Numbered from the stretch's first letter, positions 10,925 to 38,543 are shown. The stretch is DNA of 64,000 nucleotides from Patescibacteria group bacterium (GCA_022703645.1 JAKLDG010000001.1:733254-797253), one strand, 5' to 3'. The notes: generated from the letters alone by a model not told the origin. A program made the numbers and translations.

Positions 10925-11075
10925 ACCAAACTCCGCATACGGGTCTGCAACCCCTTTAACAGGCAATGTTAGGGCTTTTCCTGTGGGTCATTCTGACGGG
11001 GGTGGGTCGGGGTCTTTAACCTGAAAATGAGACAAATGAGACACTATAAAAAGGGGTTGTCTCATTTTGCTTGAC
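10925..11075 (+). ncRNA. Candidate small RNA: ~50% GC island ending in a hairpin (aatgagaca...tgtctcatt) plus U-tract
   Basis: GC content is about 20 points above the surrounding intergenic DNA. There is no ORF. A terminator-like hairpin sits at 11028-11068 with TTTT on the plus strand. Confidence 0.25.
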
Positions 11076-15350: not shown

Positions 15351-16409
15351 TCATTTTATCTGCTTATTAACTAATTTAATAAGATCTTCTTCTCTCTCAT
15401 ATCCCTTAAGTCTCCCTGATAAAATACCAAGCCTATAATTCACACCTTCACTCATTAACTGCCAGTTGGTATTTAAAAGAGTTTTCTTGATCAATTTTTC
15501 TAAGTCCTTTCTACTATTATACTCCTCTCGACCGCTTTTTTCATCCTGAATGGTAAATGAGACTATAACCGTATCGATAATTTCTGTATTTATAAATTTC
15601 AGCTTGTTGTAATTTTCTTTTTTTAATTTCTTGTTTAAAAGGTTTTCGAGGTCGGAAACTTTGAGTTTTTGAAGTTTTGCAACTGCATCGTAGATATGTT
15701 TATTCTTTTCTTTTTCTTTCATCTCTTCTATATCCTTACTAACCGTTGCCATATCCTGTTTGAACTTTATATACTTCCATCCTTCCTCATCGCTAAGACA
15801 ATATTTTTCTTTGTCTTGTAAGTAATCTGAATCCTTCTTATCCGTGTCTTTGTTTTTAATATGAACTGATTCTTTTCTATCACCACAATCAGGACAGCTA
15901 TAAATTGTTTTCATCTTTATTTTGGAATCTTTAAATTCTACATTTAATATTCCTCCGCATTTTTTACAATAATCACTTTTTGCTTCAAATTCTTTGCCAT
16001 CTTCCCAAAAAGCTCTTCGTTTATCACACTTAGGACATTGATAGAAAAATAATACTAAATCGATATCAGCTTTTTCTCGGCTAGACAAATATTTCCTGCC
16101 ATCTTGATCCATTTCGTTTTGGCAAAATAAACAAGGAATTGGGGATGGGGCTTCAGTATCTCTCAATTTATCATCTTTTGCTTTATCCGATTCCATCCAT
16201 TCTGCAATCACAGATTCTTTTCTTACATATCGTTCACCAGTTGTGAAATAGATCCATAGTTTCCAAACATACTTGTGAGCTGAGGCTTTTTCACCAGTAT
16301 ATTCTTTTACCTCTTTTGCAAAATTCTTTTCAATTCTTCTGCATTGCTCAACAGTATGCTCATCATAGAGATCGCTATAGTATATTTTTGGTTTGAGGTA
16401 GGTGATCAT
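15351..16409 (-). CDS. Hypothetical zinc-ribbon protein with coiled-coil C-terminus
   Basis: Multiple CxxC pairs (CLFCQN, CPKCDK, CKKCGG, CPDCGD); Lys/Glu-rich C-terminus. Confidence 0.5.
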   Translation of the reverse strand: MITYLKPKIYYSDLYDEHTVEQCRRIEKNFAKEVKEYTGEKASAHKYVWKLWIYFTTGERYVRKESVIAEWMESDKAKDDKLRDTEAPSPIPCLFCQNEMDQDGRKYLSSREKADIDLVLFFYQCPKCDKRRAFWEDGKEFEAKSDYCKKCGGILNVEFKDSKIKMKTIYSCPDCGDRKESVHIKNKDTDKKDSDYLQDKEKYCLSDEEGWKYIKFKQDMATVSKDIEEMKEKEKNKHIYDAVAKLQKLKVSDLENLLNKKLKKENYNKLKFINTEIIDTVIVSFTIQDEKSGREEYNSRKDLEKLIKKTLLNTNWQLMSEGVNYRLGILSGRLKGYEREEDLIKLVNKQIK

Positions 16410-22481: not shown

Positions 22482-22564
22482 ATTCGTATTAATCCTAAAT
22501 GAGTGTTCATGAAATAATATTATGTTCTGCAGACTATTATACTGATTTTATCATAAAAAATGCC

Positions 22565-22600
22565 CAAAAACAATTAAAAGAGAGGCTATCAAAGCCTCTT
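22565..22600 (-). terminator. Terminator hairpin (agaggct...agcctct) after the beta-class MTase gene
   Basis: 7-bp inverted repeat followed by a T-run on the minus strand. Confidence 0.45.
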
Positions 22601-22621
22601 TCGTTAATCCAACAAACAATA

Positions 22622-23392
22622 TTAAATATGCAATCTTAATTTAGAAAGTTTTGCGAAGGTCTCATTCTTCTCAATCCCAATCCAGTCTCTTCCTAACTTC
22701 TTTGCTACAAAAGCAGTTGTTCCACTCCCCAAGAATGGGTCGAGTACCATGTCTCCCTTGTTTGATGAAGCTATAATAACTCTTCGTAGAAGTTCTTCGG
22801 GTTTTTGAGTTGGGTGTGCAGCTCTGCCATTTGCGCCTCTCAATCTTTCTTTGCCTTGCACCAAGGGTAGTTGCCAAACATCTCTCATTTGTTTTATTGA
22901 GCCATCTTTTTGTTTATCAGGATTTATTTTTTTCAAATCTTCATAATTAAATTTCCAATTTTTACCTTTCACCGCCCAAACAATAAATTCTATTGAATGA
23001 GTAAAAACTCTCTTTGTCATATTAGGCATGGCATTTGTTTTTTGCCAGATTATAACATTGTTGATTTTGAAACCTAGTTTTTTTAGAACCATCATAATTT
23101 CAGCTAAGTTATGATGTGTGCAGGATACATAGATTGATCCATTATCTTTAAGGGCTTGATGACAACCAGCAATCCAATCATTTGTAAATTGCAGATATTC
23201 CTTATCGGTCATTTTATCCCAATCTTCATTTACCATATACCAATCACCACCAGTCTTATTTCCTTTCCACTTCAAAGCATTGCCAGATAAATTATATGGT
23301 GGGTCTGCAAAAACTAAATCGATTGACTTCGCGTCAATCTTTTTATTTAGAATTTCTATGCAATCACCTTGATATATAATATTCTTTTTCAT
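22622..23392 (-). CDS. Beta-class N6-adenine/N4-cytosine DNA methyltransferase (DpnA/M.PvuII-like)
   Basis: Motif [13 protein letters not shown] precedes motif [14 protein letters not shown]. 256 aa. Confidence 0.8.
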
Positions 23393-23394
23393 TT

Positions 23395-25227
23395 TTATGC
23401 TTTAGATAAAATAGATTTTTGCCAACTATTTATAACTTGTGGAATCTCTTCTAGCCATTCCTCGGAGTTACTAACCCTTCCTGTTATTTCGACTACATCA
23501 TTATACAATTCAAGTAATTCAGAATGTTTGAATAATTTTCCGCTCTCTTTTACTTTCAATAAAGTGTCTAACATTTTTACAAGTTGATTTATGGATAAAG
23601 GAATGATTCTTTGTTCTGTTCCTTTATATCCATATTTGATGGCCATCCAAAAAGTTTCAACCGTATCTTGATGCAATTTAGGAGCAATAAACAAACAGTA
23701 AGTATTTTTATTAGAATGACTATTTTCAAAATCTCTTAGGTGTCTCATTACTGGTTGTCCTTCGTTATACCACTGATCACGACTCACCAACATAGTAACT
23801 TCACAAACAGAATTAAACTTTTCATAAAAACATTCTATATCGGGCTTATTTGCTGGAGCAGTAAATGTCGGCTCATTGTCATCACCAACCGGATAATTGG
23901 GTTTTATGTCTATAGCATCGTTTAAAGCATTCAATGCTAAGGTAGCCAATCTCTCCAACTCAATACTCTTTTTAGATTCAGATTGATAGATGTTTTTTAA
24001 TAGATCTATATACTCCCTAACTTTATCCAAGTCTTGGGACTCATCATGAATTTCTATGTTTTGTAATTCTCTTCGATATAATCTTAGATCTTCAATATAC
24101 TTTTTGAGCTGATCGATATTTAATACACCGATGTCTTTGAAACTAAAGATAGGTACTTTCGCTCCCTCGCTCACTAAAGCATCAAGATATTCTTTATTGT
24201 CTCTTTCCAATTTAGTTGCAATCTTTATCAAGTTATCTTCTGTTTCCCACGGCAATGTTGGTTCATTAATGTCAGAAATATAAGAAAGATATTTCTCAAC
24301 ATTCTCAAATACAATTGGTGAGGCATTATCTGATTTTAGTAATGCCTTTATTTCAATTTCTCTCCTCGGCTCTAGATCAATATGAAATCCTCCGCCTCTT
24401 ATATGAATATATCTTGTCAAACGAAAATACCTAATCGCATTATCGCCATAATCTTTGAGATTATTTAGCAATAGCTCAACCTCTCTTACACTTTTTGTTT
24501 TGAGAAACTTTTTGGCAAAATTCTTTTTATATTTTTCTCGATATTTTCTTTTTTCCTTCTCGTCTTTTATTTTTCTTAGTCCATCTCTAAAATCGACTAC
24601 CGCATCCGCTTGCTTTCCGATGTTTTTATGATCTATCAATGTTGGCACAAAAAGAGAAAACTCTTCCTTGGTAATCCCAACTGGTTTATTGCCAAGAGAT
24701 TCCCATCTTTTATTTACCTCATTGATAAGATGTAGTGTTCCCACAAAGGGCTTTATATTAAATCCATCATCTTCAGAAAATGTTTTACTATCAGGATTTG
24801 GTAATTGCCATTTCAAAAAGTGAATAAAAAATACATTTCCCAGATCATAGTCTTCAGATAATAATAATTTCCCCAAAGATGTTATCTTAATTTGCTCGGC
24901 AGAATTTTTAGCAATGCAAAACCCCATCTTATTTAATGGAGCCACAGAATTTCTTCCCCTCATTGCAGGATCTTCATAATGTTGGTTATGAAAAATTCTT
25001 TCGGCTACTGCAAAAGGCATTTCTTTTTCTATATCGTCAAAATAACTCTCTTGCTCTTTGGTTAGGTCGGTTGGTTTATATAACTTATTTTTTATTAATA
25101 GAATCTGATATTTAATTTGATTTTCTGATCCAAAAGATTCCCCTTCTGATTCTTTGAGTACTTTAAGAAAACCCCGTAAACGCTCGGGGTTTCTAACTGT
25201 TGTTGATATTGACCACGGTTTTTTCAT
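23395..25227 (-). CDS. Putative type IIS restriction endonuclease, AlwI/BstNBI/PleI family
   Basis: 610 aa between two MTase genes. N-terminal [13 protein letters not shown]...LKVL and [12 protein letters not shown], and C-terminal YCLFIAP...RIIPLS, resemble N.BstNBI-family enzymes as recalled from memory. Confidence 0.5.
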
Positions 25228-25229
25228 AG

Positions 25230-26393
25230 TTAATTATTAACCTTACAATAAAATACTCTCTCGGTATGCCCGTCAGTTTCACTTCTGCCAGTAGAAAATG
25301 CCCTGTAGTCTCTTTCGAATACTTCAACCTCGCCCTTCTTTTTTAATATGTTCACAATTTCACTATCCTTAATTCTTGAATTAGATCTCCCGTCTTTTTT
25401 CTCACCAGTGTTATTGTAGGAAACTAAAATGTGTTTACAGTTTGCATTCTCTATTAAATCTTCAAATGCTTTTTTAGCACTCTTTAAACAATACTGGCTT
25501 TTCAAGTGTGTCCGATCCATTTTCTTCGCCTTGCCAAACACTTCTGGCTTTCCCCATTCAACAAGGTTTTCTAATAAATGATAAGAGTCGCAATATTGAC
25601 GTGAATTATATGGTGGATCCATATATAATACATCGCATTTTATTTTTCTTATAAGTGTATTTGCATCTTCTCTATAAACCTCGTTATTGGTATTATTTTC
25701 CAAATTGATAGTTGGCGCCAAAAGCTCTAACGGATTAATACTATCAAGATTTTTTCTATATGCATCATAATGGCCTACAGTGTTGGCAACTTTATCTGCT
25801 GCATATATCAACGATGTTATTAAGGCAAACTTCTCCTCATCGCTTTCAGCTATTGACTCTATTTTCTCTCTTATAGCACCAATCTTTTTTGCATTTTCTA
25901 TAGTGAAATAAGTGCCACCATAATATTTTGAGAAATAGTTATCATCATTGGACTTAATGCTATTTAAAAGATTGATCTTTTTCTTTAAACCATCAATATT
26001 CACATTTTTTGCGTCAAGGAATGTCTTTAGCGGAAGGTAATTGCTAAGCAGAATGTCATTACTAATAACCTTTATATTCTTATCATTAAATCCCTCTCCA
26101 ACGACTCCTGTTCCTGCAAAGATATCACAAAATGATGTGATTTCCCCGCACTTCTCGTTTACAATATCTTTTATAAAGTTTATCAGTTTAAATTTGTTAC
26201 CTAGATACCTTCTATTCTGAATTTGAAATTTGCCCTCAATGTTTTGTGTCTTGGGATAAAAATATACCTTTTCAATTTTGCTCACCTCTAAGGTAGCTTC
26301 ATTTGCCCTTTCTTTACCAAAAAAGTCAAAGCCAAAAAGAGGGGCTTGAATGGCAGTAGATAAATTTGTATGTTTGTTTTGAAGTTGAGACAT
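25230..26393 (-). CDS. Alpha-class (Dam-like, D12) N6-adenine DNA methyltransferase
   Basis: Motif I DIFAGTGVVG precedes motif IV LYMDPPYNS. Confidence 0.8.
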   Translation of the reverse strand: MSQLQNKHTNLSTAIQAPLFGFDFFGKERANEATLEVSKIEKVYFYPKTQNIEGKFQIQNRRYLGNKFKLINFIKDIVNEKCGEITSFCDIFAGTGVVGEGFNDKNIKVISNDILLSNYLPLKTFLDAKNVNIDGLKKKINLLNSIKSNDDNYFSKYYGGTYFTIENAKKIGAIREKIESIAESDEEKFALITSLIYAADKVANTVGHYDAYRKNLDSINPLELLAPTINLENNTNNEVYREDANTLIRKIKCDVLYMDPPYNSRQYCDSYHLLENLVEWGKPEVFGKAKKMDRTHLKSQYCLKSAKKAFEDLIENANCKHILVSYNNTGEKKDGRSNSRIKDSEIVNILKKKGEVEVFERDYRAFSTGRSETDGHTERVFYCKVNN

Positions 26394-26665: not shown

Positions 26666-27184
26666 TTAATTATAGCTATCAATTATCTTGTCACCATCTC
26701 TATCATAGAAACAAGAGGGACTATAACTACGCCAACACCATTGCAATTGAGTCCCGCTACCATAATTTGATGGATTAATAGAGTCGGGTTGGCTACCATA
26801 CGATTCAACAAGCATATCATAACTCATGCCAACCCATATCTTCCCATTTGCAACACCTTCGCATTCTTCAACGGTCCATAAAGGGTGCTGTTTCCAGATT
26901 TGGCCAGCTCTTGAATTTTGCCATTCTGGATCAGCTAATTTTTGAGCCGTAGCTTCGGCCCTCTCCTCTTTAGCCTTCTCAACTTGTTCGCTCTGCTCCT
27001 TAACAGCTTCATTCCAGCTATTATTAGCCATTATCATTGGGATCGTGATTATAGCTATCACCACCACCAGTGCAATCCAACATCCTTTCTTTTTTGACTT
27101 CGCACCTTTTAAAGATGATTTACAGTGTTTGCAAAACTGGGCATCATCTTGTATCTCCTCTGCACATTTTGGACACTTCTTCAT
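26666..27184 (-). CDS. Zinc-ribbon membrane protein (N-terminal CPKC...CKHC, single TM, extracytoplasmic Trp/Cys-rich domain)
   Basis: MKKCPKCAEEIQDDAQFCKHCK followed by TM segment IALVVVIAIITIPMIM. Confidence 0.5.
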   Translation of the reverse strand: MKKCPKCAEEIQDDAQFCKHCKSSLKGAKSKKKGCWIALVVVIAIITIPMIMANNSWNEAVKEQSEQVEKAKEERAEATAQKLADPEWQNSRAGQIWKQHPLWTVEECEGVANGKIWVGMSYDMLVESYGSQPDSINPSNYGSGTQLQWCWRSYSPSCFYDRDGDKIIDSYN

Positions 27185-27370
27185 AAATTCTCCTTTCTAA
27201 TAAAAAACACCGCAAAAATATGCGGTATTTAATACTAAGATTATTATTGCTAAATTTTATATTACATTTTTGTAACATGATCCTTGGTCGGTTTTTATAT
27301 TTTTTAGTGGAAAACACAAAGCTCCCCACCAGCGATGGCTTGCGCCACCCACACCCCTTTCGAGGCATGA

Positions 27371-27420
27371 CCGACCAAGGTGCTCTGATGGAGAGCTTTC
27401 TACCTTGGTCGGATTTTTTG
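27371..27420 (+). terminator. Strong intrinsic terminator: 11-bp stem ccgaccaaggt/accttggtcgg with nested 5-bp hairpin, followed by TTTTTT
   Basis: Perfect inverted repeat plus T-run on the plus strand. The preceding ~80 nt are GC-rich. Confidence 0.65.
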
Positions 27421-27561
27421 CCATATCCTACAGATGTAATGCAGGGGTTAGGCAACTAAATTGTTAGCATCATTTTAGCATGCAAAACCGTTAAAGTAAA
27501 GCTATTAATCCCCGTATCGACTCACATTTATATACATCACAAATCAGGGATTAACAACAAT

Positions 27562-27590
27562 TTGACTATTACAATTATTTTGCCTATAAT
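27562..27590 (+). promoter_or_regulatory. Consensus sigma70 promoter TTGACT-17-TATAAT
   Basis: -35 TTGACT at 27562-27567, exact 17-nt spacer, -10 TATAAT at 27585-27590. Confidence 0.7.
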
Positions 27591-27686
27591 ACACTTAGAT
27601 TAAAAATTTACGGAGAGCAACTCTAATGTTTTAAGTGGTCAATACATCCCGTACTTGAATTAGGGTCTGCTAACAAAAAAATCCCA

Positions 27687-27728
27687 AACCAATAGAAAGG
27701 ATCTCTTTTTTCTGTTGGTTTTTTTTAT
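27687..27728 (+). terminator. Intrinsic terminator/attenuator (aaccaatagaaa...tttctgttggtt + T8) located 37 nt upstream of the ParB-MTase start
   Basis: 12-bp stem with one G-U pair, then eight T. It sits between the promoter and the RBS (AAGGAGG at 27754). Confidence 0.6.
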
Positions 27729-27764
27729 TTTAAAAATATTAATAATTTTAACAAGGAGGTAATC

Positions 27765-29123
27765 ATGTTAAAAGAAAATCAGTTAAAAGTAATTCAAGTT
27801 CCCATCAAAGAACTTAAACCATCTGAATATAATCCAAGAAGATGGTCGGCTGATGCTATCAAACAGCTTAAGGATAGCATAACAAGATTTGGGCTAGTGG
27901 ATCCAATCATAGTAAACATTGCGCAAGGACGAGAACAAATCGTAATTGGGGGCCACTTTAGATTAAAGGTCGCCAAAGATTTAGGATTTCACGAAGTACC
28001 GGTTGTGTATCTCGATATCCCAGACGTTGAGAAAGAAAAAGAATTAAACATCAGATTAAACAAAAATCTGGGTGAATTCGATTTCGATCTTCTAAAAAGT
28101 TTCGGAGAAGATTTTCTATCAGACCTTGGATTTTCATCCGAAGATTTGGATAGAATATTTGAGGTTGAGGACACGCCGGAAATGTTTGATTTAGAAAAAG
28201 AATTAAAAAAGCTGGATATTAAGAACATTGAAATCCAAAAAGGAGATCTCTGGGATCTTGGCGGAAGCAGAATGTATTGTGGAGACTCTACAATAGAAGA
28301 AGATATGCTAGCGCTGATGGGGAAAGAAAAAGCAGATATGGTTTTGACGGATCCGCCATATATTCTTGATTATCTAAAGGGAAAGAAAAAACATGGCAAA
28401 GCAATTGAAGGGTTCGGATATAAAAGAGACAGAAAATATCTTGAAACAGACTTTTTGCCTGAAGACTTTACGGAAAAATGGATGACTAACGTTCACAAAG
28501 TTCAAAAAGATGATTTTCACATCATTGTTTATGAGAACTGGAAAAACATTCGAACCATATGGAATGAGATGGAAAAATACTGGAAGGTAAAGAATATGAT
28601 TGTTTGGCACCTGCCAAATCGTGTTCAAAATTTCTCATCAAAATATAAGCTCTTTAACAAGCATGACATAGCAATGGTTGGTACCAATAAGGACTTGGGA
28701 TTTAATTTTGAGCAAGAGAACAGGGAATTGCAAAATGAATATGAAACAGCTCTTTACGCGATAAGCGGAAAACCAGCTTGGGAATCATACGAAAAAGGAA
28801 AGAAATATTGCCCAACTGATTTTATCGAATTTAATGCTGCTGATGAGAAAAGTTCGGGCCAAGGAATTATATTTGGCACGAAACCAACAGAGATATTGAT
28901 TCCATATATAAAAATACTGACCAAAAGAAATGATTTAATTTTAGAACCGTTTGGTGGTAGCGGTAGCACTTTAATAGCGGCAACAAAAATGAAGCGTCGA
29001 TGCTATCTTATGGAAAAATCACCGATATATGCGGAAGTAATTAGAAAGCGCTGGGAAAATCTAACAGGCCAGAAAGCTAAACTGATCTCAAAAAAGGAGG
29101 TGAAGGATGATAAACAAAAGTAA
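27765..29123 (+). CDS. ParB-like nuclease domain fused to beta-class DNA methyltransferase
   Basis: N-terminal ParB-N motif (KPSEYNPRRWS...GGHFRL). MTase motif IV VLTDPPYIL and motif I EPFGGSGSTLIAA. RBS AAGGAGG. Confidence 0.8.
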   Translation: MLKENQLKVIQVPIKELKPSEYNPRRWSADAIKQLKDSITRFGLVDPIIVNIAQGREQIVIGGHFRLKVAKDLGFHEVPVVYLDIPDVEKEKELNIRLNKNLGEFDFDLLKSFGEDFLSDLGFSSEDLDRIFEVEDTPEMFDLEKELKKLDIKNIEIQKGDLWDLGGSRMYCGDSTIEEDMLALMGKEKADMVLTDPPYILDYLKGKKKHGKAIEGFGYKRDRKYLETDFLPEDFTEKWMTNVHKVQKDDFHIIVYENWKNIRTIWNEMEKYWKVKNMIVWHLPNRVQNFSSKYKLFNKHDIAMVGTNKDLGFNFEQENRELQNEYETALYAISGKPAWESYEKGKKYCPTDFIEFNAADEKSSGQGIIFGTKPTEILIPYIKILTKRNDLILEPFGGSGSTLIAATKMKRRCYLMEKSPIYAEVIRKRWENLTGQKAKLISKKEVKDDKQK

Positions 29124-29538
29124 GGTTCAGAAAACATTATTGGAACAACTTTCCAAAATGCCAATTATCCAAGTAGCCTGCGACAAAAGTGGCGTAAGCA
29201 GGGCTACATTCTACAGAATGTGCAAAGAGAGTAAGAAGTTCAAGGGAAATACAGATAAAGCCATTCAACAAGGAAGGCTCCTTATAAATGATATGGCTGA
29301 AACGCAGATCATATCAGCGATTAAAGATCGGAATATAACAGGGCTGATTTATTGGTTAAACCACAATCATCCATTGTATAAGACTAGGATAGAAATTGAG
29401 GCTAACCACAAAATCAATAATGGAAAAATCAGTAAGGAACAGGAGGCTTTAATAAAGAAAGCCATAGGATTAATGATCCCCAATAATAGCAAAAAGGGAT
29501 CAGCCCAAGACAATATTCCAATAAAAGACAATGAGTAA
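29107..29538 (+). CDS. HTH protein, putative terminase small subunit
   Basis: 143 aa with an HTH (VACDKSGVSRATFYRMCKES). Its stop overlaps the start of the large terminase gene. Confidence 0.45.
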   Translation: MINKSKVQKTLLEQLSKMPIIQVACDKSGVSRATFYRMCKESKKFKGNTDKAIQQGRLLINDMAETQIISAIKDRNITGLIYWLNHNHPLYKTRIEIEANHKINNGKISKEQEALIKKAIGLMIPNNSKKGSAQDNIPIKDNE

Positions 29539-31102
29539 AAGATTGAATTACAGAAACAACATTATAGACAATAAAACCATGAAACGCATTACTGAGGACC
29601 CAATTTTTAGAGCAGAATTGTGTCGCAAAAGTTTCAAATGGTTTTTTATTGTTTATTTTGCAGATTACATAGAATACCCAATAGCAGAATTTCATAACGA
29701 ATTATTCGAAATTGCGGAAAATGAAAAAATAAAAACCGCAGTGATTACCGCCTTCAGGTCATCGGCAAAAAGCACAATTCTTACTGTGGCTTATGCAATA
29801 TGGGCAATTCTTGGACAACAAAATAGAAAGTTTGTTGTACTTGTAAGCCAAACCCAAGAACAGGTTCGTGTTCACTTCAAAAATATCAAGAGAGCATTGG
29901 AATCTAACACTCTTTTGAAAGAAGATTTGGGACCATTTGAAGAAGATGAGTGGAATTCCGCTTCGATAGTAATAACCAAACTGAATGCAAGGATTACCGC
30001 TCTATCTTCTGAACAAAGCTTCCGAGGCGCGATCCATGGGCATACTCGCCCCCAATTAATCCTGTGCGATGATATAGAGGATACCACCTCAGTAAAAACT
30101 AGAGAGGGACGGGATAAAATATATAAATGGTTCAATAGCGAAATCATGCCTTTGGGGGATCAAAATACCAGGACAATAGTATTTGGTAATTTAACCCACG
30201 AAGATTGTCTATTGATGAGATTAAAGAAAGAAATAGAAAGTGGTGAAAGATCAGGAATTTACCGAGAATACCCCATGATCGATGAAAATGGTAAAATCCT
30301 TTGGCCGGGCAAATACCCAAGCGAAGAAGCAATTGAAGAAGAAAGAAAAAAAATGGATAAATTCTCTTTTGCTAGAGAATTCATGCTCCAAATAATCGAT
30401 GATCGAGAAGCCGTAATAAACAAAGAGGACATCCATTATTATGCTGGCAAAATCCCAGAGCCACTGAGAAATCAATCATGGAGTTATGTCACTGGGATAG
30501 ACTTAGCAATCTCGCAAAAGGATAGCGCTGATTGTACAGCGATGGTAACCATGAAAATAATCGGCGAAGACGAAAAGATGCGAATATATGTTTTACCGCA
30601 TCCTATCAATGATAGGTTAACTTTTTCACAAATATTAGAAACTGGAGTTACTCTTTCTCAAAGTTTGGGCGGGAGAGGTAATAATCTATATTGCGTGGAA
30701 GAAGTGATGCTGCAAGGCTATCTAACTCAACACTTCAAAGATAATAATCTTAACGCAGAGGGAGTTAAGATAAGTGGTATGGACAAAAGAACCCGACTTA
30801 TAATGACATCTGATTGGATAAGAAAAGGAATTATTCTGTTCCCAGAAAGAGGCGCAGAAGATTTGATAAAACAAATCTTGGGTTTTGGGGTTGAAAAGCA
30901 TGATGACTTGGTGGATTCTTTTACTATCGCTATCTTAAGAACGATTAATAATCCTCCGGAAGAAATTATTTCTTTAGCTTTTTGTCGTTCATCAGATGAA
31001 ACTGACGGTCATGGTTCCATACCTGAGGGGTATCATTATAGTAAACACACTGTGCTTAGAGGCGATGATTTTGTAACAGAATATCGCCTTACACCAAATT
31101 AA
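29531..31102 (+). CDS. Phage terminase large subunit
   Basis: Walker A AFRSSAKST, Walker B LILCDDIED and a C-terminal RNaseH-like nuclease region with conserved Asp residues. Confidence 0.8.
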   Translation: MSKRLNYRNNIIDNKTMKRITEDPIFRAELCRKSFKWFFIVYFADYIEYPIAEFHNELFEIAENEKIKTAVITAFRSSAKSTILTVAYAIWAILGQQNRKFVVLVSQTQEQVRVHFKNIKRALESNTLLKEDLGPFEEDEWNSASIVITKLNARITALSSEQSFRGAIHGHTRPQLILCDDIEDTTSVKTREGRDKIYKWFNSEIMPLGDQNTRTIVFGNLTHEDCLLMRLKKEIESGERSGIYREYPMIDENGKILWPGKYPSEEAIEEERKKMDKFSFAREFMLQIIDDREAVINKEDIHYYAGKIPEPLRNQSWSYVTGIDLAISQKDSADCTAMVTMKIIGEDEKMRIYVLPHPINDRLTFSQILETGVTLSQSLGGRGNNLYCVEEVMLQGYLTQHFKDNNLNAEGVKISGMDKRTRLIMTSDWIRKGIILFPERGAEDLIKQILGFGVEKHDDLVDSFTIAILRTINNPPEEIISLAFCRSSDETDGHGSIPEGYHYSKHTVLRGDDFVTEYRLTPN

Positions 31103-31211
31103 AAGGGAGTTTTTAGGGCTTTTTGAAAAAGAGTTGTCTACAGCTTTAAGTCTGGACTTACTTACCCCTTAGCGGTACTCTCCTTACTACTATACTAGTA
31201 ACAAGGAATAT

Positions 31212-32618
31212 ATGGGTAAAATAAGTGGCAATTTAGTGAGCCCAGTAAGAGAAACTGGGAGCCAAAACTGGGTCAGTTTTGAGCAGGATACTAAGGTGAG
31301 GTACTGCCTCTACGCTAGAAAATCAACAGAAGATGATGAGAGGCAGGCATTATCTATTGATTCCCAGATCAAAGAGATGCTGGAATCAGCCCAAAGAGAA
31401 GGGCTGGAGGTGGTGGATGTAAGGCGAGAGTCCCACTCCGCTAAGAGTTCGGGATGCAGGCCAGTATTCAACCAAATACTGATTGATATTAAGGCCGGAT
31501 TGTTTAATGGAATTTTAAGCTGGGCACCGGACAGGTTAAGCAGAAATGCCGGAGATTTGGGAACCGTCGTAGATCTTATGGATCAGGGACATCTGAAACA
31601 GATTAAAACTAACGGTCAATCCTTCACCAATTCTCCTAATGAGAAGTTCATGCTAATGATCCTCTGCTCTCAGGCAAAGCTAGAAAATGATAATAAAGGT
31701 GAGAATGTAAAAAGAGGATTGAGGGCTAAATGTGAGCTGGGTTATCGCCCAGGGATGACCCCCCTCGGATATCTTAATGAATATATCGGGATCAAGGGAA
31801 AAATGAAGATCTTCCTTGATCCCGTTCGGGCTCCCATTATTAGAGAGATGTTTGAAAAAGTAGCTTATGAGAACTGGAGCGGTAGAGATCTGTATAGATG
31901 GCTCGTAGATGAAAAAGATTTTAAGACCAGGACAGGTCATCGATTTACTATTAGTGGAATATTGAGAACGCTTGGGACACCGTTTTATTATGGAGAGTTT
32001 GAGTATCCTGAGGGATCAGGCAACTGGTACAAAGGAGCTCATGAACCATTGATAACCAAGGAATTATTCGAAAAGGTGAGAGCCAATATGGCAGTAGCAC
32101 CCAAGGCAAGACCTGGATTAAAGGAATTTGAATTTACAAAACTAATCAAATGCGGAACCTGCGGTAGAACTATCATTGCAGATGAGAGATTCAGAAAATT
32201 AAAAGATGGGGGTATGAATAGACATGTCTACTATCACTGCACTCAGAAGATCGAACGAGAATGTCATGAACCACCTATCGGCGAAGAAGAATTGATAGAA
32301 CAGATGGTAAAGCTGATTGATAAAATGAATTTTAGAAAAAGAAGTATCAGTGATAGAATCAAAAACGAAATACTGAAATACAATAGGTTTTCTGAAGTGC
32401 TCTTCGGAAATCAATACCTGGAAAAAGAAAAAGTTAAATCAGACCAGCAAAATATTAGGGCGTACGCCAAGTACGTCCTCCGAGAAGGAACAAAGGATGA
32501 GAAAAGGGAATTACTAACAGATCTAAAAACAAAATTGGTACTACATAATAAGCAGATATCATTAGAGGATGAGAAAATCATAAATAGCGTAAATAAGCCA
32601 GAAATTGACAAACAATAA
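31212..32618 (+). CDS. Large serine recombinase (phage-type serine integrase)
   Basis: Resolvase-like catalytic domain YARKSTEDDERQALSIDSQ. Recombinase domain and zinc ribbon CGTCGRT...YYHC. Confidence 0.85.
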   Translation: MGKISGNLVSPVRETGSQNWVSFEQDTKVRYCLYARKSTEDDERQALSIDSQIKEMLESAQREGLEVVDVRRESHSAKSSGCRPVFNQILIDIKAGLFNGILSWAPDRLSRNAGDLGTVVDLMDQGHLKQIKTNGQSFTNSPNEKFMLMILCSQAKLENDNKGENVKRGLRAKCELGYRPGMTPLGYLNEYIGIKGKMKIFLDPVRAPIIREMFEKVAYENWSGRDLYRWLVDEKDFKTRTGHRFTISGILRTLGTPFYYGEFEYPEGSGNWYKGAHEPLITKELFEKVRANMAVAPKARPGLKEFEFTKLIKCGTCGRTIIADERFRKLKDGGMNRHVYYHCTQKIERECHEPPIGEEELIEQMVKLIDKMNFRKRSISDRIKNEILKYNRFSEVLFGNQYLEKEKVKSDQQNIRAYAKYVLREGTKDEKRELLTDLKTKLVLHNKQISLEDEKIINSVNKPEIDKQ

Positions 32619-32660
32619 CATTCATGCTATCATATCTATAATTTTATTAAACTAAAAAAT

Positions 32661-33794
32661 ATGTTAAAAAAATCTTTGTTTTGCATTCTATTCTTTCTAT
32701 CAGGACTTGCCTTCTTAATCCCGACCAATTCTGTGAAAGCAGCGAACGTTAACCAAAAAGCTTATGATTATGAATTAGTTGACCAGCAACCATCTGTTCC
32801 CATTACAATGGATCCCGGTGAAACTAAAACTTTTTGGCTTGAATTGAAAAATACTGGTACAGAAACTTGGAATAATTATGATAAAGCACAAAACCCCGTA
32901 AGCCTTGGCACTGGTTCTATTTATGATCCAGAAAACAGAGGCCATGATTATGCAGATTATTTTATTAATGATATTATTTCTGAAAATAGCTCCGTGAATA
33001 GGGTTGGGTATTTCTCAGATGGAGTACAAAGCTTGGTAATTATTAAATCGGGCTGGAATGTTAGAATTCAATTCCAAGTGAAAGCCCCCTATACCCCAGG
33101 AATTTACAGAGAATATTTCACTCCTGTAGTAGATGGGATAACATGGATGAAAGATATTGGAATTTATTGGGAGATTACAGTTACAGATCAATGGCAAAAT
33201 AAAACTATAGATTTATATAACAATCAAATACTCTTAAAATCAAAAGTTGGAGATACTGTCCGGGTTCATTCCGATGACATACATAGCTTAACTTACGATG
33301 CAAGTATTCTGCAATATACCGCACCATCAAATTATTGTTATAATTCGGTAAATTGCCAAACGGTTTATGACTTTCAAATTATAGGTAGCGGTTTTACCGG
33401 TATAAGCGGTAACAATTTTTATAGTTCAATTATAGCTGATCGGAATTACTATTATTATGATGCCGGCTTGCAGCAGAAATTAAATGGTGCAAAAAATGGA
33501 GATATTGTTATTGTAAGAATACAAAATGTGGGCAACAGGGCTGACGGAATGTTTTTTGATAAAGGCTATCTTTATGATAATCCAATACTTTCCTCTCAAG
33601 GAATAAAAATGAAACAGGAGAAAAATCTCGTCCCTATTTCTCGGATGGTTGGCGATATTGGTTTAATGAATTGGGCAGAAGAACAATGGGTATTTGAAGT
33701 CTTAGATGTAAATGCAAATAATAATATAACAATTAAAACCGCACCAGATTTAAGTGGATTTACCGCTGAGGTGTTTACATTAAATATCAAATAG
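32661..33794 (+). CDS. Secreted protein, paralog A (signal peptide; Ig/CARDB-like N-terminal domain; C-terminal conserved domain)
   Basis: Signal peptide. Motifs shared with the next gene: AYDYELVDQQPS, KNTGTETW, TWMKDIGIYWEI, ADRNYYYYD, GDIVIVR, QWVFEVLD. Confidence 0.55.
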   Translation: MLKKSLFCILFFLSGLAFLIPTNSVKAANVNQKAYDYELVDQQPSVPITMDPGETKTFWLELKNTGTETWNNYDKAQNPVSLGTGSIYDPENRGHDYADYFINDIISENSSVNRVGYFSDGVQSLVIIKSGWNVRIQFQVKAPYTPGIYREYFTPVVDGITWMKDIGIYWEITVTDQWQNKTIDLYNNQILLKSKVGDTVRVHSDDIHSLTYDASILQYTAPSNYCYNSVNCQTVYDFQIIGSGFTGISGNNFYSSIIADRNYYYYDAGLQQKLNGAKNGDIVIVRIQNVGNRADGMFFDKGYLYDNPILSSQGIKMKQEKNLVPISRMVGDIGLMNWAEEQWVFEVLDVNANNNITIKTAPDLSGFTAEVFTLNIK

Positions 33795-33840
33795 ATTATT
33801 TAAAATAGTTTTTCTGCCATTTATTATTAATTTCACAAAA

Positions 33841-35073
33841 ATGAAAAAACAGTTCTTAAAACTAATGTTTATAGCCTTTTTTGCTAGCATCATATTTGTT
33901 CCAATTTATAGTGTCAATGCTACTACAAAGAAACCAGTGGTAAAGGCTTATGATTATGAATTGGTCGATCAGCAACCATCGGAAATCATTACAATGCAAC
34001 CAGGAGAAATCAGAACTGTTTGGATTGAAGTAAAAAATACGGGAACACAAACTTGGTATTCCGGCATTCCCAGAAGCATAGACGATCCGTCTACCGGCTT
34101 TGTTAATCTCGGGACTGGCTCTAAATATGACCCTCAATCTAGAGGCAAGGATTACCAAAGTGATTTTAATTATTATATCCCATCATCATGCGTAGGGTGT
34201 GGTTATTGGCTTTCTGTAAATAGACCCGCTAGCATATATACCGATGGGATAAAGCCGGGCTGGAACACTAGATTCACATTTAATCTCAGGGCTCCCCAAG
34301 CACCCGGTGTTTATAGAGAATATGTCACCCCAGTTGTAGAAGGTGTAACATGGATGAAAGATATTGGCATTTATTGGGAGATAAAAGTTCTCGATTCAAA
34401 CGATATTCCGTATTCAAATCAACTTTTGAATCGAGAAGAAATTAATGGGGTCAATGTGCTAACCCCTACAAATAACGATGCCGTAATAAGTAATAGAAGT
34501 ATTACCACATACAAGTTAAAAAAAGGCGATCGATTAGTACTTAATGTTCCTTATTACATTAGCAGTCTAAAATATGACAATTCTATATTAAAATATACAC
34601 GGAACACCGATGATGTTACATATACTTTTGATGTGATTAAAGATGGGTATAGCAAAATTGAATTTGAATCTCCTGACCCTTACGGAAATATTATTTGGTA
34701 TACATGTGTCAACATTGTTGCTGATCGGAATTATTATTTTTATGATAAAGGTTCTAATCCCCATTCAAGTTTGAATAATATTAAAGCTGGAGACATTGTA
34801 ATTGTAAGATTACCAAATCCTGGAGATGGCGGTTATGTATTTGGAGACCCTGAATTCTCATTATCAGATAGAGTAAGAATGTTGGACCACACTCATTTTG
34901 CCGCAACTACTGGTTTAGTCGGTGACTTTGGTGAAGATCAGTGGGCATTTGAGATTCTAGATAGCGAAAATGCTAACTGGATTCAAATAATATCTTACAG
35001 ACCATGGGAATATCAAAAATATAATCCAAGCACATACAACACAGTATTTACCTTAAGCTGGCATAATCTCTAA
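33841..35073 (+). CDS. Secreted protein, paralog B (tandem duplicate of 32661..33794)
   Basis: Same motif set (AYDYELVDQQPS, KNTGTQTW, TWMKDIGIYWEI, ADRNYYFYD, GDIVIVR, QWAFEILD) and a signal peptide. Confidence 0.55.
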   Translation: MKKQFLKLMFIAFFASIIFVPIYSVNATTKKPVVKAYDYELVDQQPSEIITMQPGEIRTVWIEVKNTGTQTWYSGIPRSIDDPSTGFVNLGTGSKYDPQSRGKDYQSDFNYYIPSSCVGCGYWLSVNRPASIYTDGIKPGWNTRFTFNLRAPQAPGVYREYVTPVVEGVTWMKDIGIYWEIKVLDSNDIPYSNQLLNREEINGVNVLTPTNNDAVISNRSITTYKLKKGDRLVLNVPYYISSLKYDNSILKYTRNTDDVTYTFDVIKDGYSKIEFESPDPYGNIIWYTCVNIVADRNYYFYDKGSNPHSSLNNIKAGDIVIVRLPNPGDGGYVFGDPEFSLSDRVRMLDHTHFAATTGLVGDFGEDQWAFEILDSENANWIQIISYRPWEYQKYNPSTYNTVFTLSWHNL

Positions 35074-35098
35074 TTCTATTAGATTTGTTTTGATTAAA

Positions 35099-35677
35099 TT
35101 AGTACAGAGCCGAGAATATTTCCCATCTCTGCCCCATCACTTCAGCACAACTCCATTGTTGAGCAGCCGCTCCTTCGTCAGGTGATGAATCACCAATCTC
35201 AAGGCATTTATTATTATAAGAAGGGTGTAATTCATACACGCCTTTATCTAATTTTTCAATATTCCAAAGTTGTTGTGGGGCACCAACACAATCCCATAGT
35301 TGAGCTATCGCTCCATCTGATCGGGAGGCCTCATCAATTTCCAAACAATAATTTGTATTAACTATTTTTATTTCCCAACCCTCGCCTTGTTGTTCTATTT
35401 GCCAGACTTGATTATGTATCTCATCCATTGAAAATTGACTGGTCGGGGTACCACTTGTAATGCTTTGATTTGCTGAAAGATACTTCCCGCTCCCCATATT
35501 GATAATTCTCACTGGTCCCATTTTGCCAAAATCAATTTCATTATTATCAACCCCCTGTGCCCATTTTTGTAACCCAATAAGAGCAAAAAGAATTCCAAGA
35601 ACAACGGCAATTGACAGTAAATCAAGCAGTGTTCGCTTAAGGTTTAATTTTTCAAATATTTCTTTTATCTTTTTCAT
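35099..35677 (-). CDS. Ricin-type beta-trefoil lectin domain protein with N-terminal TM anchor
   Basis: Three QxW repeats (QVWQIEQQ, QLWDC...QQLWNIEK, QQWSC...QRWEIF). Confidence 0.7.
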   Translation of the reverse strand: MKKIKEIFEKLNLKRTLLDLLSIAVVLGILFALIGLQKWAQGVDNNEIDFGKMGPVRIINMGSGKYLSANQSITSGTPTSQFSMDEIHNQVWQIEQQGEGWEIKIVNTNYCLEIDEASRSDGAIAQLWDCVGAPQQLWNIEKLDKGVYELHPSYNNKCLEIGDSSPDEGAAAQQWSCAEVMGQRWEIFSALY

Positions 35678-35678
35678 C

Positions 35679-36827
35679 TCAAATTTTTATATGGATTTTC
35701 TTTTGATACATATAAGCCAGAATAAACCACTTAACCCCAAAAGCAGCAATAGCAAGGATGAGTGGGAAAGCAGCAATATATATTGGTTGCAAGCCTCCAA
35801 CAAAAAATCTAGCGATTCCGTCAAAATCTATTATCGCAATTGTCACATACATAAAGAGCGGGTTGAAACCAACAACCGCAAGAGGATATGCCCAGAATCT
35901 GATTTTCCAAACATCTAAAATTAAATACAGAAATGAAAGTGCAAAAGTCATCCAACCAGCGCTAGCTAAAATATATGAACTAGTCCAAATTTTTTTAATA
36001 AAAGGTAAATATGGTGCCCAAATATAGGCTGCAGATAAAAGGATTATTCCAATTAAAAACAATATTCCCGCTTTAATATAGCCAGCAGTTTCAATCTTAA
36101 GTTTCATCTGCAATAACCTTCCAATTAAAACTCCCATGAGCCCCAAAGATATAGTTGAGATAGTTGATAATATTCCTTCCGGATCTCCCAACCCTTTATA
36201 AAGCAATTGGTTAGGTAATAGGAAAATACGATCAATATAATAGATAAAATTTCCTTCGGGTGTAAGAATTCCAGCTCCAAACCCTGGAGTATTGGCAAAA
36301 GTTAGAAACCACCAATAAAGAGCAAAAAATAGAACCGCTAAGATTGCTAGATAACGAGTTCTTAGAAATAAGACCAAAATTGAAACTACAAAATAGGTAA
36401 TACCAATCTTTTGCAAAACTCCTAAGATGCGGAAACTTTCCCAGCCTTCCAATCTCATAACACCATTAAGAAACCAACCAATTAAGATTAAAAGTAAAGT
36501 TCTTTTAAGAATTGAAAGGATAATTTGCCAAAACTTATCACCTTTATCTTTTCTTTTATCAATAACAACAGGAATTACAACTCCCATTACAAAAATAAAA
36601 CCTGGAAAAACCAAGTCATAAAGATGAAGCCCAACCCAATCAGCATGGGTTGATAAACTGTTATTGATATTTAACCAAAAAGAGCTTTGGGTAAGTTCCG
36701 CATATTTCGTGAAAATTAAAGATAGGCCAACTGTACCCCAAAGCATTAAAAAACCCCTTAAAACATCAACTGAATATATTCGTTGATTTGTAGGGGTTTT
36801 TTCTTTTGTATTAACTAATTTTTTCAT
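35679..36827 (-). CDS. Polytopic membrane protein, DUF1624/HGSNAT-like acyltransferase family
   Basis: N-terminal RIYSVDVLRGFLMLWGTVG matches the RxxSxDxxRGxxM signature. About 10 TM helices. Confidence 0.5.
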   Translation of the reverse strand: MKKLVNTKEKTPTNQRIYSVDVLRGFLMLWGTVGLSLIFTKYAELTQSSFWLNINNSLSTHADWVGLHLYDLVFPGFIFVMGVVIPVVIDKRKDKGDKFWQIILSILKRTLLLILIGWFLNGVMRLEGWESFRILGVLQKIGITYFVVSILVLFLRTRYLAILAVLFFALYWWFLTFANTPGFGAGILTPEGNFIYYIDRIFLLPNQLLYKGLGDPEGILSTISTISLGLMGVLIGRLLQMKLKIETAGYIKAGILFLIGIILLSAAYIWAPYLPFIKKIWTSSYILASAGWMTFALSFLYLILDVWKIRFWAYPLAVVGFNPLFMYVTIAIIDFDGIARFFVGGLQPIYIAAFPLILAIAAFGVKWFILAYMYQKKIHIKI

Positions 36828-36906: not shown

Positions 36907-37193
36907 CTCAGGGGGTGGGGGTCGAACCCACAACCTATCGGTTACACTTAATCCCTAGCTTTCGCTAAAGCGTGGACTATATCTTTGCCGTGTTCTAAAA
37001 ATAGAATTTAGGCATCTCGGTATCTAGTCTCTACGGCGCTCTCCGCCAAAGCGGAGTTCCCACGGTATTAGCATGCCCACCCAAGGCGGGTTTAGCCTTC
37101 ACCGTTATCCCGAGAAGTTCACCTCGCTGTTTCCAACGAGGGCTGCGTTTTATGTTTTCACAGCCGATTGCTCCACCATTGAGCTACCCCTGA
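36907..37193 (-). tRNA. tRNA-Asn(GUU) interrupted by a 215-nt group I intron in the anticodon loop (after U35)
   Basis: Exons reconstruct the cloverleaf: acceptor TCAGGGG/CCCCTGA, D-arm GCTC-AATGGTG-GAGC, anticodon arm ATCGG-CTGT^TAA-CCGAT, T-arm GTGGG-TTCGACC-CCCAC, discriminator G. Confidence 0.8.
36945..37159 (-). ncRNA. Group I self-splicing intron
   Basis: P1: exon GGCUGU pairs with the intron guide sequence GCAGCC, with a U-G pair at the 5' splice site. R element AGAGACUAGA and S element AAGAUAUAGUCC form P7. Terminal G precedes the 3' exon. Confidence 0.75.
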
Positions 37194-37285
37194 GTCGAAC
37201 TCTCTACAAATGCAATGTTAACTTACAACTAACTATATTTAAAGGCCCCTGACAGGGATGGGTCGGAAATCACCCCACCGTCCCT

Positions 37286-37357
37286 GTCAGAGGGTGGGGG
37301 TCGAACCCACAACCTACCGGTTAACAGCCGGTTGCTCCACCATTGAGCTACCTCTGA
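37286..37357 (-). tRNA. tRNA-Asn(GUU), intron-less copy
   Basis: TCAGAGG-TA-GCTC-AATGGTG-GAGC-A-ACCGG-CTGTTAA-CCGGT-AGGTT-GTGGG-TTCGACC-CCCAC-CCTCTGA-C. Confidence 0.85.
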
Positions 37358-37386: not shown

Positions 37387-38517
37387 TTATTTTAAATATT
37401 CTTTCAACTTCTTACTTTCGCGGTTTCTTCTAAGTTTGAGAAGCGCCTTTGCTTCAATCTGACGAATACGCTCACGGGTAACACCAAATTCACGCCCCAC
37501 TTCTTCCAAAGTATGGCTCTTACCATCTTCCAAACCAAACCTCATCTTTAGAATTTTTTGTTCTCTTGGGTAGAGTGATTTTATAACTCCGCGTAATTGT
37601 TCACGAAGCAATTGATGCGTTGCCGCTTCATCCGGTGCAATATTTTTATCATCTGGAACAAAATCTGAAAGGTGCGAATCTTCTTCTTCGCCGACAGTAG
37701 TTTCAAGTGAAATTGTACCTTGAGAAATTTTTAAAACATGTTGAACTTTTTCTATTTCCATATTCATTTCAGCTGCAATTTCCTCTGGTGTCGGATCACG
37801 CTGTAATTCCTGCGAAAGCTGCCTTTGGACTCGATTTAGTTTATTAATCGTTTCAACCATATGCACCGGAATACGAATTGTGCGAGCCTGATCCGCAATA
37901 GAGCGCGTAATCGCTTGGCGAATCCACCAAGTCGCGTAAGTTGAAAATTTATAACCACGCTTGTAATCAAATTTCTCTACTGCTTTCATTAAACCAAAAT
38001 TTCCTTCTTGAATTAGATCAAGAAGAGGAAGACCGCGACCGACAAATTTCTTTGCAATTGAAACAACCAAACGAAGGTTTGCTTCAATCAATCTTTCTTT
38101 TGCTCTTTCATCGCCCTTCTCTACTTTTTTTGCTAACTCAATTTCATCCTCCGTTGTTAAAAGTTGAATGCGGCCGATTTCACGCAAGTACATACGAACA
38201 GAGTCGGTAGAAATATCAGCGAGTGTCGCTTCCTGCTTTTTTATTTCTTCCAAGATATTTTCTTCACTAAGCCTTTCATCATCAAGGCTTTCTTCGTCCC
38301 CACTCTCCATTACTTCAATACCCTCTTCCAACATAATGGAATAAATTTCATCAAATTTTTCTACATCACCTTCAGCATCAGGGATAACACTCAAAATATC
38401 ATCTTGAGTTAAAAAACCTTGCCCTTTTCCTTTCTCTATCAAAGCCTCAATCTCGGGGTTTACTTTTTCTTTTTTCTTTTGCTGAGAGTTATCACTAACT
38501 ATTTTCTTTTTGACCAT
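37387..38517 (-). CDS. rpoD: RNA polymerase sigma factor RpoD (sigma-70)
   Basis: Regions 2-4 conserved: [54 protein letters not shown]. Confidence 0.9.
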
Positions 38518-38543
38518 GTAAAAATTTTAATAATATGATTATA

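Follow-up and report, generated by a model that had tools for sequence, protein, structure and literature searches.

A terminase and serine integrase operon without capsid genes forms the core of tRNA-adjacent integrative islands of Patescibacteria, possibly phage satellites

A 64,000-nucleotide stretch from an 867 kb contig of the metagenome-assembled genome of a Patescibacteria group bacterium (GCA_022703645.1, JAKLDG010000001.1:733254-797253), hereafter the window, carries on its plus strand an operon encoding a fusion of a ParB_N domain with an N6/N4 DNA methyltransferase (MTase), a small terminase-like helix-turn-helix (HTH) protein (TerS), a large terminase (TerL) and a large serine recombinase (LSR), in this order and behind a sigma-70-type promoter (Table 1). 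All four genes and the promoter are present where the initial annotation, made from the sequence alone, had placed them, and the gene calls proved correct by Pfam, PHROG and conserved motifs. The reading frames are unbroken and packed tightly or overlapping (27765-32618); this includes those of TerL and the integrase, interruption of which had been named in advance as a sign against the initial annotation. The plus-strand block that had been described at 27562-32640 is likewise real, but it ends at 35073 rather than at 32640. Pfam and PHROG scans find no portal, capsid, tail or lysis genes downstream of the core in the window, and the genes that do follow encode secreted proteins, both as had been noted: two paralogs with signal peptides. 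The four genes are the conserved core of a larger family of mobile islands that occurs in hundreds of genomes of Patescibacteria, also known as the candidate phyla radiation (CPR).

The MTase fusion is recognized by Pfam (ParB_N, 1.5e-11; N6_N4_Mtase, 3e-22) and by PHROG (phrog_498, 5e-81), and a DPPY motif can be read in its translation. TerL combines the elements expected of a large terminase. The Walker A (R76, S78, K80, S81, T82) and Walker B (D180, D181) residues of its ATPase domain and the acidic residues D324, D459 and D462 of its nuclease are invariant among 36 homologs, the ATPase domain profile aligns with T7 gp19 and PhiV-1 TerL, and the C-terminal nuclease is matched by phrog_5573 over residues 248-475, with Terminase_6C (PF17289) precomputed for many homologs; judged by these motifs, the protein appears to possess both the ATPase and the RNase H-like nuclease of large terminases. 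In the LSR, the motif YARKST, which holds the catalytic Ser38, can be aligned with its catalytic counterpart in TP901-1 integrase, and SPbeta SprA is also matched; together with its three domains this makes it a recombinase of the phage type. The TerS assignment draws on position, directly upstream of TerL with the genes overlapping, and on profile matches of lesser strength. The window protein matches a PHROG small terminase weakly (phrog_309, 5e-6), and among 31 orthologs HTH_Tnp_1_2 is found in 29, Sf6_terminase in 17 and GP3_package in 8, the latter two with E-values of 1e-2 to 1e-4 only. A search of the TerS family profile against solved structures found no TerS, and Pfam returned no match for the window TerL or TerS taken singly.

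Homologs of TerL fall into more than 1,490 clusters at 90% identity in a word-indexed search and into 402 clusters at 50% identity (E ≤ 1e-30) in an exhaustive one, and where a cluster bears an organism name, the label is mostly that of a CPR lineage. Three sets of loci were compared, 80 from species-representative genomes (at least 570 matches), 79 from IMG/VR and 80 from metagenomes, and individual loci are given L numbers below. Of about 185 related loci, drawn from genomes and metagenomes of Patescibacteria, about 180 carry the MTase-TerS-TerL(-LSR) cassette. Down to a TerL identity of about 44% with the query, MTase, TerS and TerL follow one another in this order on one strand without exception; this holds for all 80 genome loci, all 80 loci from metagenomes and the 18 IMG/VR loci closest to the query (L086-L102, L105). 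Across the family the MTase occurs as the ParB fusion or in split form, as two N6_N4 MTases, and 78 of 81 genome loci have a homolog in one form or the other upstream of TerS; TerS itself has a homolog in 75 of the 81. An LSR gene follows TerL in 108 of 182 loci, at most 250 bp away in 58 of them and otherwise parted from it by 0.25-9 kb of variable genes. The same genome carries a second, diverged cassette, with a TerL (P5096_00135) 50% identical to the query TerL; nucleotide identity is 79% over MTase-TerS, 67% in TerL and 69% in the LSR, and the layout is that of the first, including a LOOT RNA (described below) upstream and a tRNA downstream.

Several variants of the cassette were encountered. 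Two tandem TerL paralogs follow one TerS in L018, L042, L045, L049, L058, L085, L086, L105 and L215, islands mostly labelled Peribacteria or Peregrinibacteria, and TerLs of about 700 residues with an uncharacterized C-terminal extension of about 200 residues occur in L060, L174, L191, L208 and L211 (and as proteins P0121-P0123). In L020, L190 and L227 the LSR gene lies upstream of the MTase on the opposite strand and still faces the tRNA 3' end; comparison of L020 with L079 suggests that the MTase-TerL segment is inverted relative to the LSR in L020. Two IMG/VR cassettes, L111 and L112, are decayed, with a truncated TerL and a recombinase in two fragments on the opposite strand.

When open reading frames (ORFs) neighboring the 80 genome loci were clustered, only the four core genes emerged as families with members in more than 60 loci, followed by a family found in 18 of 81 genome loci. 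Recurrent minor families are a LexA/S24 repressor, an Xre-type HTH protein, an HTH_17 excisionase-like protein, a NucS-like PD-(D/E)xK protein, and membrane-anchored proteins of DUF4352 and tRNA_anti-like type. When 121 large non-core ORFs in and around the islands were scanned with PHROG, the families matched at least twice included no portal, capsid or tail, and a phage portal used as phmmer query found no match in the portal-less cassette loci while matching L103 and L104. In a positive control, L107, whose TerL is 31% identical, portal and head genes stand after TerL. Because the portals of L103, L104 and L107 were detected, these tools evidently find a portal where one exists. The repeat-delimited island L029, of 9.6 kb, has no room for a virion module at all. 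The islands thus lack genes for virion structure and lysis, as satellites do, and portal or head genes contiguous with the terminase, by which a prophage would be known, are present neither here nor in the roughly 180 relatives. The 18 IMG/VR contigs with the closest TerLs, filed there as viral, are host islands and not viruses.

L103 and L104 are phage contigs (GC 0.38, similarly low) whose TerLs are 43% and 39% identical to the query. They share with the islands the succession of MTase or ParB-MTase, a gene in TerS position and TerL, but continue with the portal gene where the islands have the serine integrase or cargo. A phylogeny of TerL had been proposed as a check. Among 197 TerLs compared in a neighbor-joining tree, those of the islands, 189 in number, fall into one clade that has L103 and L104 as its sister and includes no portal-linked member, so that the islands do stand apart from the portal-linked phages. 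The simplest history compatible with this topology would be that a phage packaging module was captured once and then persisted for long without virion genes. Such a history, with no portal-linked TerL inside the island clade, contradicts repeated prophage decay, and by it the family would descend from a tailed phage's packaging module (ParB-MTase, TerS, TerL), the LSR having come to lie where the phage has its portal gene.

The islands are tied to tRNA genes. In all 46 loci that have a tRNA after the LSR, the first one lies on the opposite strand with its 3' end toward the 3' end of the LSR gene, at a distance of just 95-265 bp in 15 of them; most often it is a tRNA-Ser (20 loci) or a tRNA-Gln (13 loci), and the flipped variants L190 and L227 keep this orientation. 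Significant flanking direct repeats of 20-47 nt were found in seven loci (L029, L046, L084, L173, L177, L189, L209), where one copy abuts the tRNA 3' end and the other lies 3.5-6.6 kb upstream of the MTase. With tRNA adjacency in 46 of 46 loci and repeats in seven, the family shows the site-specific integration of satellites. Two pairwise comparisons indicate horizontal movement besides. L063 and L079 have in common a block of 7.5 kb, with 91% identity over 6.4 kb of it, whose end coincides exactly with a tRNA-Ser gene, a different one in each, and beyond which the flanks are unrelated. L020 and L079, conversely, have host flanks that are 87% identical and cassettes that are only 65-75% identical.

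These observations also bear on the size of the element, which the initial annotation had taken to be about 5 kb, with attachment repeats to be sought at 27.5 and 32.7 kb. No significant att-like repeat flanks these positions in the window, and since the repeat-delimited islands of relatives measure 9.6-17.3 kb and end at a tRNA 3' end, the 5 kb are the core of a larger element and not the element itself. Exact-protein look-ups of flanking genes, made for the empty-site comparison that had been suggested, gave only occupied context.

In the window, the probable right boundary is a tRNA-Asn gene whose 3' end faces the island. A candidate right repeat lies 22-39 nt outside this end, an offset that matches the repeats of L029, L046, L084, L177 and L189. 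Its tentative left counterpart, in a GC-rich intergenic region, is identical at 16 of 18 positions, a match that is marginal, being equalled in 11 of 300 shuffles, and it is the sole GC-rich candidate. We consider the chances about even that the island spans 10993-37286, about 26 kb (26.3 kb). Support for a left arm of this extent comes from the Zn-finger-rich family encoded at 15351-16409, members of which are also found in the left arm at 11 further island loci, and from Avs4 homologs that flank two other islands (L097, L212); left of 10.9 kb the genes are host-like, for example TruB and shikimate dehydrogenase. Near the tentative left end lies an orphan gene (11168-12049, minus strand) for a 293-residue protein with a weak PHROG "head-tail joining" match (E = 4e-4) and no homologs among 5.8 billion proteins.

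Some further observations concern the tRNA sites. Next to the intact tRNA-Asn gene stands, in tandem, a second one, missed by ARAGORN, that is split in its anticodon loop by an insert of about 215 nt; this insert scores 35.7 bits (E = 1.8e-7) as Intron_gpI, under the Rfam gathering score. A tRNA-Ile gene with anticodon UAU (61367-61439, plus strand) was called by both ARAGORN and Rfam. The rpoD and dnaG genes that adjoin the island in the window (37387-40325, minus strand) have homologs next to islands elsewhere: L057, which is labelled Kuenenbacteria, has both, while L233 has rpoD and L211 has dnaG. This suggests that this neighborhood is a conserved insertion hotspot; contigs from three other samples stop just after rpoD. 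In L010, L221, L048 and L082, duplicated tRNA 3' fragments, whole tRNAs and second recombinase genes beside the islands suggest tandem or composite arrays at one tRNA site. Finally, a motif GGGTC(T/G) lies 12-30 nt outside the tRNA 3' end in many loci (L011, L029, L066, L196, L245 and others). In islands linked to tRNA-Ser it reads GGGTC-N5-GAAC, which resembles the T-loop sequence GGNTCGAAC of tRNA with five extra bases, a spacing reminiscent of attP versus attB half-sites of serine integrases. Motifs of this type occur in the window at 10941-11015, in the leader at 27663 and at 37260. As a common att signature, the motif was rejected: it stands upstream of the MTase in just 20 of 151 loci, and its strict pattern is absent from the window. 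Since recombinase half-sites and remnants of tRNA T-loops are not separable here, we keep it as an observation.

Expression of the operon may be held in check. In the window a terminator hairpin of 16 bp with a T-run (27686-27721) sits between the promoter and the ribosome-binding site of the MTase (AAGGAGG, 27753-27759, followed by the ATG at 27765), and the leader as a whole folds with a minimum free energy of -31.2 kcal/mol (z = -2.99). Terminator-like hairpins no more than 160 nt upstream of the MTase were found in 31 of 151 related loci, compared with 32 of 910 random windows (3.5%). Some of these hairpins may simply terminate upstream genes; the window leader is probably an attenuator of the packaging operon. 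A LexA/S24 repressor gene is divergent from the operon in 18 of 81 genome loci, sometimes paired with an Xre-type gene, and small HTH_17 excisionase-like genes stand at the left end of other islands. By analogy, the layout resembles that of a phage late operon, or of a satellite packaging operon, held off until SOS induction or helper infection. In the lambda pR'-tR' region, where Q acts by antitermination, an operon that contains the terminase likewise stands behind a strong promoter whose short leader is followed by an intrinsic terminator; no Q-like antiterminator was identified here, and the analogy is one of layout only.

Divergent from the core operon lies a LOOT RNA (Rfam RF03000), a family filed in Rfam as small RNA (sRNA) of unknown role; the window copy is full length (model positions 1-121) and far above the gathering score, and behind it come a terminator (27230-27205) and a gene for a zinc-ribbon protein. 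With the covariance model rebuilt from the hits, LOOT was found in 52 of about 180 island loci and in none of the scanned portal-linked phage loci. It lies nearly always on the strand opposite the core. In 35 of the 52 it is downstream of TerL, 18 of these being divergent from the LSR start at a distance of 93-250 nt, and in 12 it precedes the MTase, 10 times on the minus strand, which is also its place in the window. A co-oriented ORF starts within about 150 nt downstream of LOOT in 49 of the 52 loci, and these ORFs are heterogeneous, encoding a tRNA_anti-like membrane protein, DUF4352, PD-(D/E)xK-like or zinc-ribbon proteins; in L063 and L079, LOOT and its downstream gene lie within the mobile block. 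LOOT and promoter of the second island of this genome are 86% identical to the window copy, and short-read contigs break inside them. On its placement, LOOT appears to be a 5' leader, carried by the island, for a slot of exchangeable accessory genes, and not a free-standing sRNA. We also considered it as the integration target and rejected this, as it lies inside the L063/L079 block that ends at the tRNA and takes several positions within islands.

The remaining genes around the core may be cargo. The protein encoded behind LOOT in the window has homologs directly after LOOT or TerL in L177, L183 and L207. The genes at 32661-36827, between the LSR and the tRNA, are probably island cargo, by analogy with the LSR-to-tRNA interval of relatives, which spans 0.1-8 kb; the two secreted paralogs, the second of which has a marginal chagasin-type peptidase-inhibitor (I42) domain, have no homolog near other islands. 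On the left, a full-length Avs4 and an AlwI-type restriction-modification system (17661-26393) form a small defense island that may be carried as cargo. Avs4 senses phage portal proteins, while Avs1-3 sense TerL; a portal sensor next to an element that has a TerL and no portal is a striking neighbor.

Table 1. Features of the island region, numbered from the first nucleotide of the window
Feature	Position	Strand	Remarks
Candidate left repeat CTGACGGGGGTGGGTCGG	10993-11010	+	tentative left boundary
Zn-finger-rich protein, family f10	15351-16409	-	E = 3.4e-82
Avs4 STAND NTPase	17661-22481	-	PADLOC, 2260 bits
AlwI-type restriction-modification: N6_N4 MTase	22622-23392	-	whole system directly upstream of the LOOT unit
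AlwI endonuclease	23395-25227	-	restriction-modification system
D12 MTase	25230-26393	-	restriction-modification system
Zn-ribbon, membrane-anchored protein, DUF4352-like ectodomain	26666-27184	-	accessory gene led by LOOT
LOOT RNA (RF03000)	27334-27454	-	98.5 bits; gathering score 46.4
Sigma-70-type promoter TTGACT-17-TATAAT	27562-27590	+	11 of 12 consensus positions; best site of the region
Untranslated leader	27597-27735	+	intrinsic terminator at its end, stem 27686-27721 and T-run
ParB_N::N6/N4 MTase fusion, 452 aa	27765-29123	+	first gene of the core operon
TerS-like HTH protein, 143 aa	29107-29538	+	overlaps both neighboring genes
TerL, 523 aa, P5096_00840	29531-31102	+	phrog_38, 6e-76
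LSR (integrase), 468 aa	31212-32618	+	Resolvase, Recombinase, Zn_ribbon_recom (Pfam)
Two paralogous signal-peptide (secreted) proteins in tandem	32661-33794, 33841-35073	+	probable cargo
Ricin-type lectin	35099-35677	-	probable cargo
Membrane protein	35679-36827	-	probable cargo
tRNA-Asn(GUU), intron-split	36908-37195	-	group-I-like intron 36953-37169
Candidate right repeat CTGACAGGGATGGGTCGG	37247-37264	+
tRNA-Asn(GUU)	37286-37357	-	probable right boundary (attR side)

The initial annotation had left the choice between a decayed prophage end and a satellite-like element, and of these the satellite has gained support whereas decay has not, in view of some 180 recurrent loci, the conserved residues and a separate TerL clade. 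To the reading that the operon is the core of Patescibacteria-specific, tRNA-adjacent, capsid-less integrative islands, each a phage satellite that brings its own terminase and borrows procapsids, we give slightly better than an even chance. Excision, induction, a helper phage, the packaging step and a role for methylation are what we infer for its life cycle, which could perceivably run as follows. The LSR would have inserted the island at the 3' end of a tRNA gene, here that of tRNA-Asn at 37286. The MTase-TerS-TerL-integrase operon would then be kept silent, by the promoter-proximal terminator in the window and by the divergent LexA/S24-type repressor in many relatives, until the SOS response or infection by a helper phage turned it on. 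The integrase, assisted by a small excisionase-like HTH protein where one is present, would excise the island, TerS would recognize a packaging (pac) site on it, and TerL would cut the island DNA and pump it into procapsids of a co-infecting phage whose portal fits this TerL lineage. Phages of the L103/L104 type are a plausible source of compatible portals. The MTase would methylate the island DNA, either for protection in the next host or as a license for pac cleavage; in phage P1, adenine methylation licenses pac cleavage. LOOT-led surface proteins, nucleases, restriction-modification and Avs4 would be carried along as cargo. Dependence of the island on its helper would be a corollary of this scheme.

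A number of points weigh against this satellite reading. To our knowledge, satellites without capsid genes carry no TerL, since TerL must dock on a specific portal. No helper phage was identified for this genome, L103 and L104 being the only helper-like candidates, and Avs4, 5 kb upstream, would be expected to abort infection by a portal-bearing phage unless the helper were spared. The window copy has no homolog of the LexA-like repressor or of the excisionase, and the ends of its island are placed only tentatively. Circular or excised forms, for which the initial annotation had proposed a check, did not appear as terminal overlaps among the contigs of 20 IMG/VR and 80 metagenome loci. No replication module (primase/helicase, Rep) was recognized among the recurrent neighbors or by PHROG and Pfam, the sensitivity of which is limited for divergent CPR proteins. 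The TerL tree, lastly, is a neighbor-joining tree without support values.

Failure to see excised forms would also be expected if TerS, TerL and MTase formed a domesticated or defensive module that acts within the cell against phages, cutting or mis-packaging invading phage DNA or poisoning procapsids while methylation marks self, and if the island moved by its integrase and not in capsids. The Avs4 and restriction-modification genes of the window, the PD-(D/E)xK-like and MTase cargo of other islands, and the pairing of an MTase with a nuclease, which resembles self/non-self logic, are all in keeping with this. However, TerS, TerL and LSR match no defense model of PADLOC v2, where the MTase matches generic MTase models only, a TerS and TerL with an intact translocating ATPase are the signature of packaging, and the strict association with an integrase and with tRNA sites speaks for an element that moves. 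Interference with phages and transfer of the element itself are, moreover, compatible, and known satellites do both. We therefore hold a purely defensive module to be unlikely.

The islands might, on the other hand, produce particles of their own, with structural genes that go unrecognized in the cargo or lie elsewhere in the genome, in a split arrangement like that of gene transfer agents. Many neighboring ORFs are indeed unannotated, CPR phage proteins are poorly covered by databases, and the orphan near the tentative left end has its head-tail-joining match. Against this, no unannotated family is conserved across islands, as would be expected of capsid or portal genes, repeat-delimited islands of 9.6-12 kb lack the room, the portals of the sister phages are readily detected, and the orphan is without homologs; self-sufficiency is improbable on these grounds. 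Less probable again is a use of TerS and TerL in DNA processing independent of any capsid, be it the resolution of concatemers during island replication or the making of linear DNA for release and uptake by competence or type IV pili, the machinery for which is common in CPR bacteria. It would do without the helper that is not known and would fill the DNA-processing role for which no replication genes are recognized, but the island TerL clade is sister to portal-linked TerLs and has kept the full two-domain architecture, and we know of no precedent for a TerL that acts without a portal. The weakest alternative, and among the rivals the only one that is essentially excluded, is that the four genes were left as the end of a decaying prophage after loss of its portal, head, tail and lysis genes; this is very improbable, since the order of genes as in real phages (L104, L103) and the visible decay of some relatives (L111, L112) are set against a same truncation point some 180 times that independent decay is not expected to produce, invariant catalytic residues with intact frames in the window, a monophyletic group of island TerLs that leaves portal-linked ones outside, two diverged copies persisting in one small genome, and a 7.5 kb block that is largely 91% identical in L063 and L079 and yet sits at different tRNAs.

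If the islands are satellites, their nearest counterparts would be the phage-inducible chromosomal islands (PICIs), including the Staphylococcus aureus pathogenicity islands (SaPIs). These, too, are integrative islands that measure about 10-17 kb, bear an integrase at one end, encode neither virion nor lysis proteins, and carry a small terminase of their own together with accessory or defense cargo. In many relatives of the present island a repressor gene is divergent from the main operon, which may correspond to the master repressor of PICIs. The packaging operon of SaPIs is controlled by LexA, and a LexA-type control in these relatives would recall it. The differences are, however, considerable, in that PICIs use a tyrosine integrase and not an LSR, whereas the islands have a full TerL besides TerS, an obligatory DNA methyltransferase and Patescibacteria as hosts, and no recognized primase/Rep replication module; the likeness is one of gene content. 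Capsid-forming PICIs (cf-PICIs) do have their own TerS and TerL and hence a packaging specificity independent of the helper's terminase, but they also encode a major capsid protein, portal, protease and head-tail connectors, none of which is found in the islands, and take only tails from the helper. With regard to integration, the staphylococcal cassette chromosome SCCmec, mobilized by the Ccr recombinases, resembles the islands in LSR-mediated insertion at the 3' end of a conserved housekeeping gene, in short direct repeats and in frequent tandem or composite arrays, while SCC elements target rlmH rather than tRNA genes and have no terminase. A literature search returned no description of the island family or of the genomic context of LOOT; its coverage is incomplete and absence from it does not prove novelty, and the family is apparently undescribed.

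One may go further and see in these islands an unrecognized, phylum-wide class of satellites that has kept the terminase holoenzyme and a dedicated MTase and dropped all virion genes, that inserts by an LSR at tRNA 3' ends, and in which LOOT is a cis-acting leader, for instance for antitermination or helper sensing, driving a swappable slot for surface and defense cargo. We advance this wider proposal tentatively, as something we would sooner doubt than assert; if it is true, these satellites would be the first in which a TerL encoded by the element itself has to dock on a foreign portal, and LOOT RNA would gain its first functional context.

Taken together, the findings bear on a large part of bacterial diversity, that of the CPR or Patescibacteria, in which the mobile elements and gene flow of these tiny episymbionts are barely known. 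They place the orphan Rfam family LOOT in a defined genetic context and supply a candidate set of large serine integrases that target tRNA genes, and they warn that TerL, widely relied on as a hallmark of viruses, leads to host islands being filed as viral. The island may be a vehicle by which defense genes such as Avs4 and restriction-modification systems enter CPR genomes. A common island with TerS and TerL and without a capsid would widen the known strategies of satellites, and it raises the question of how a motor encoded by a satellite recognizes the portal of its helper.

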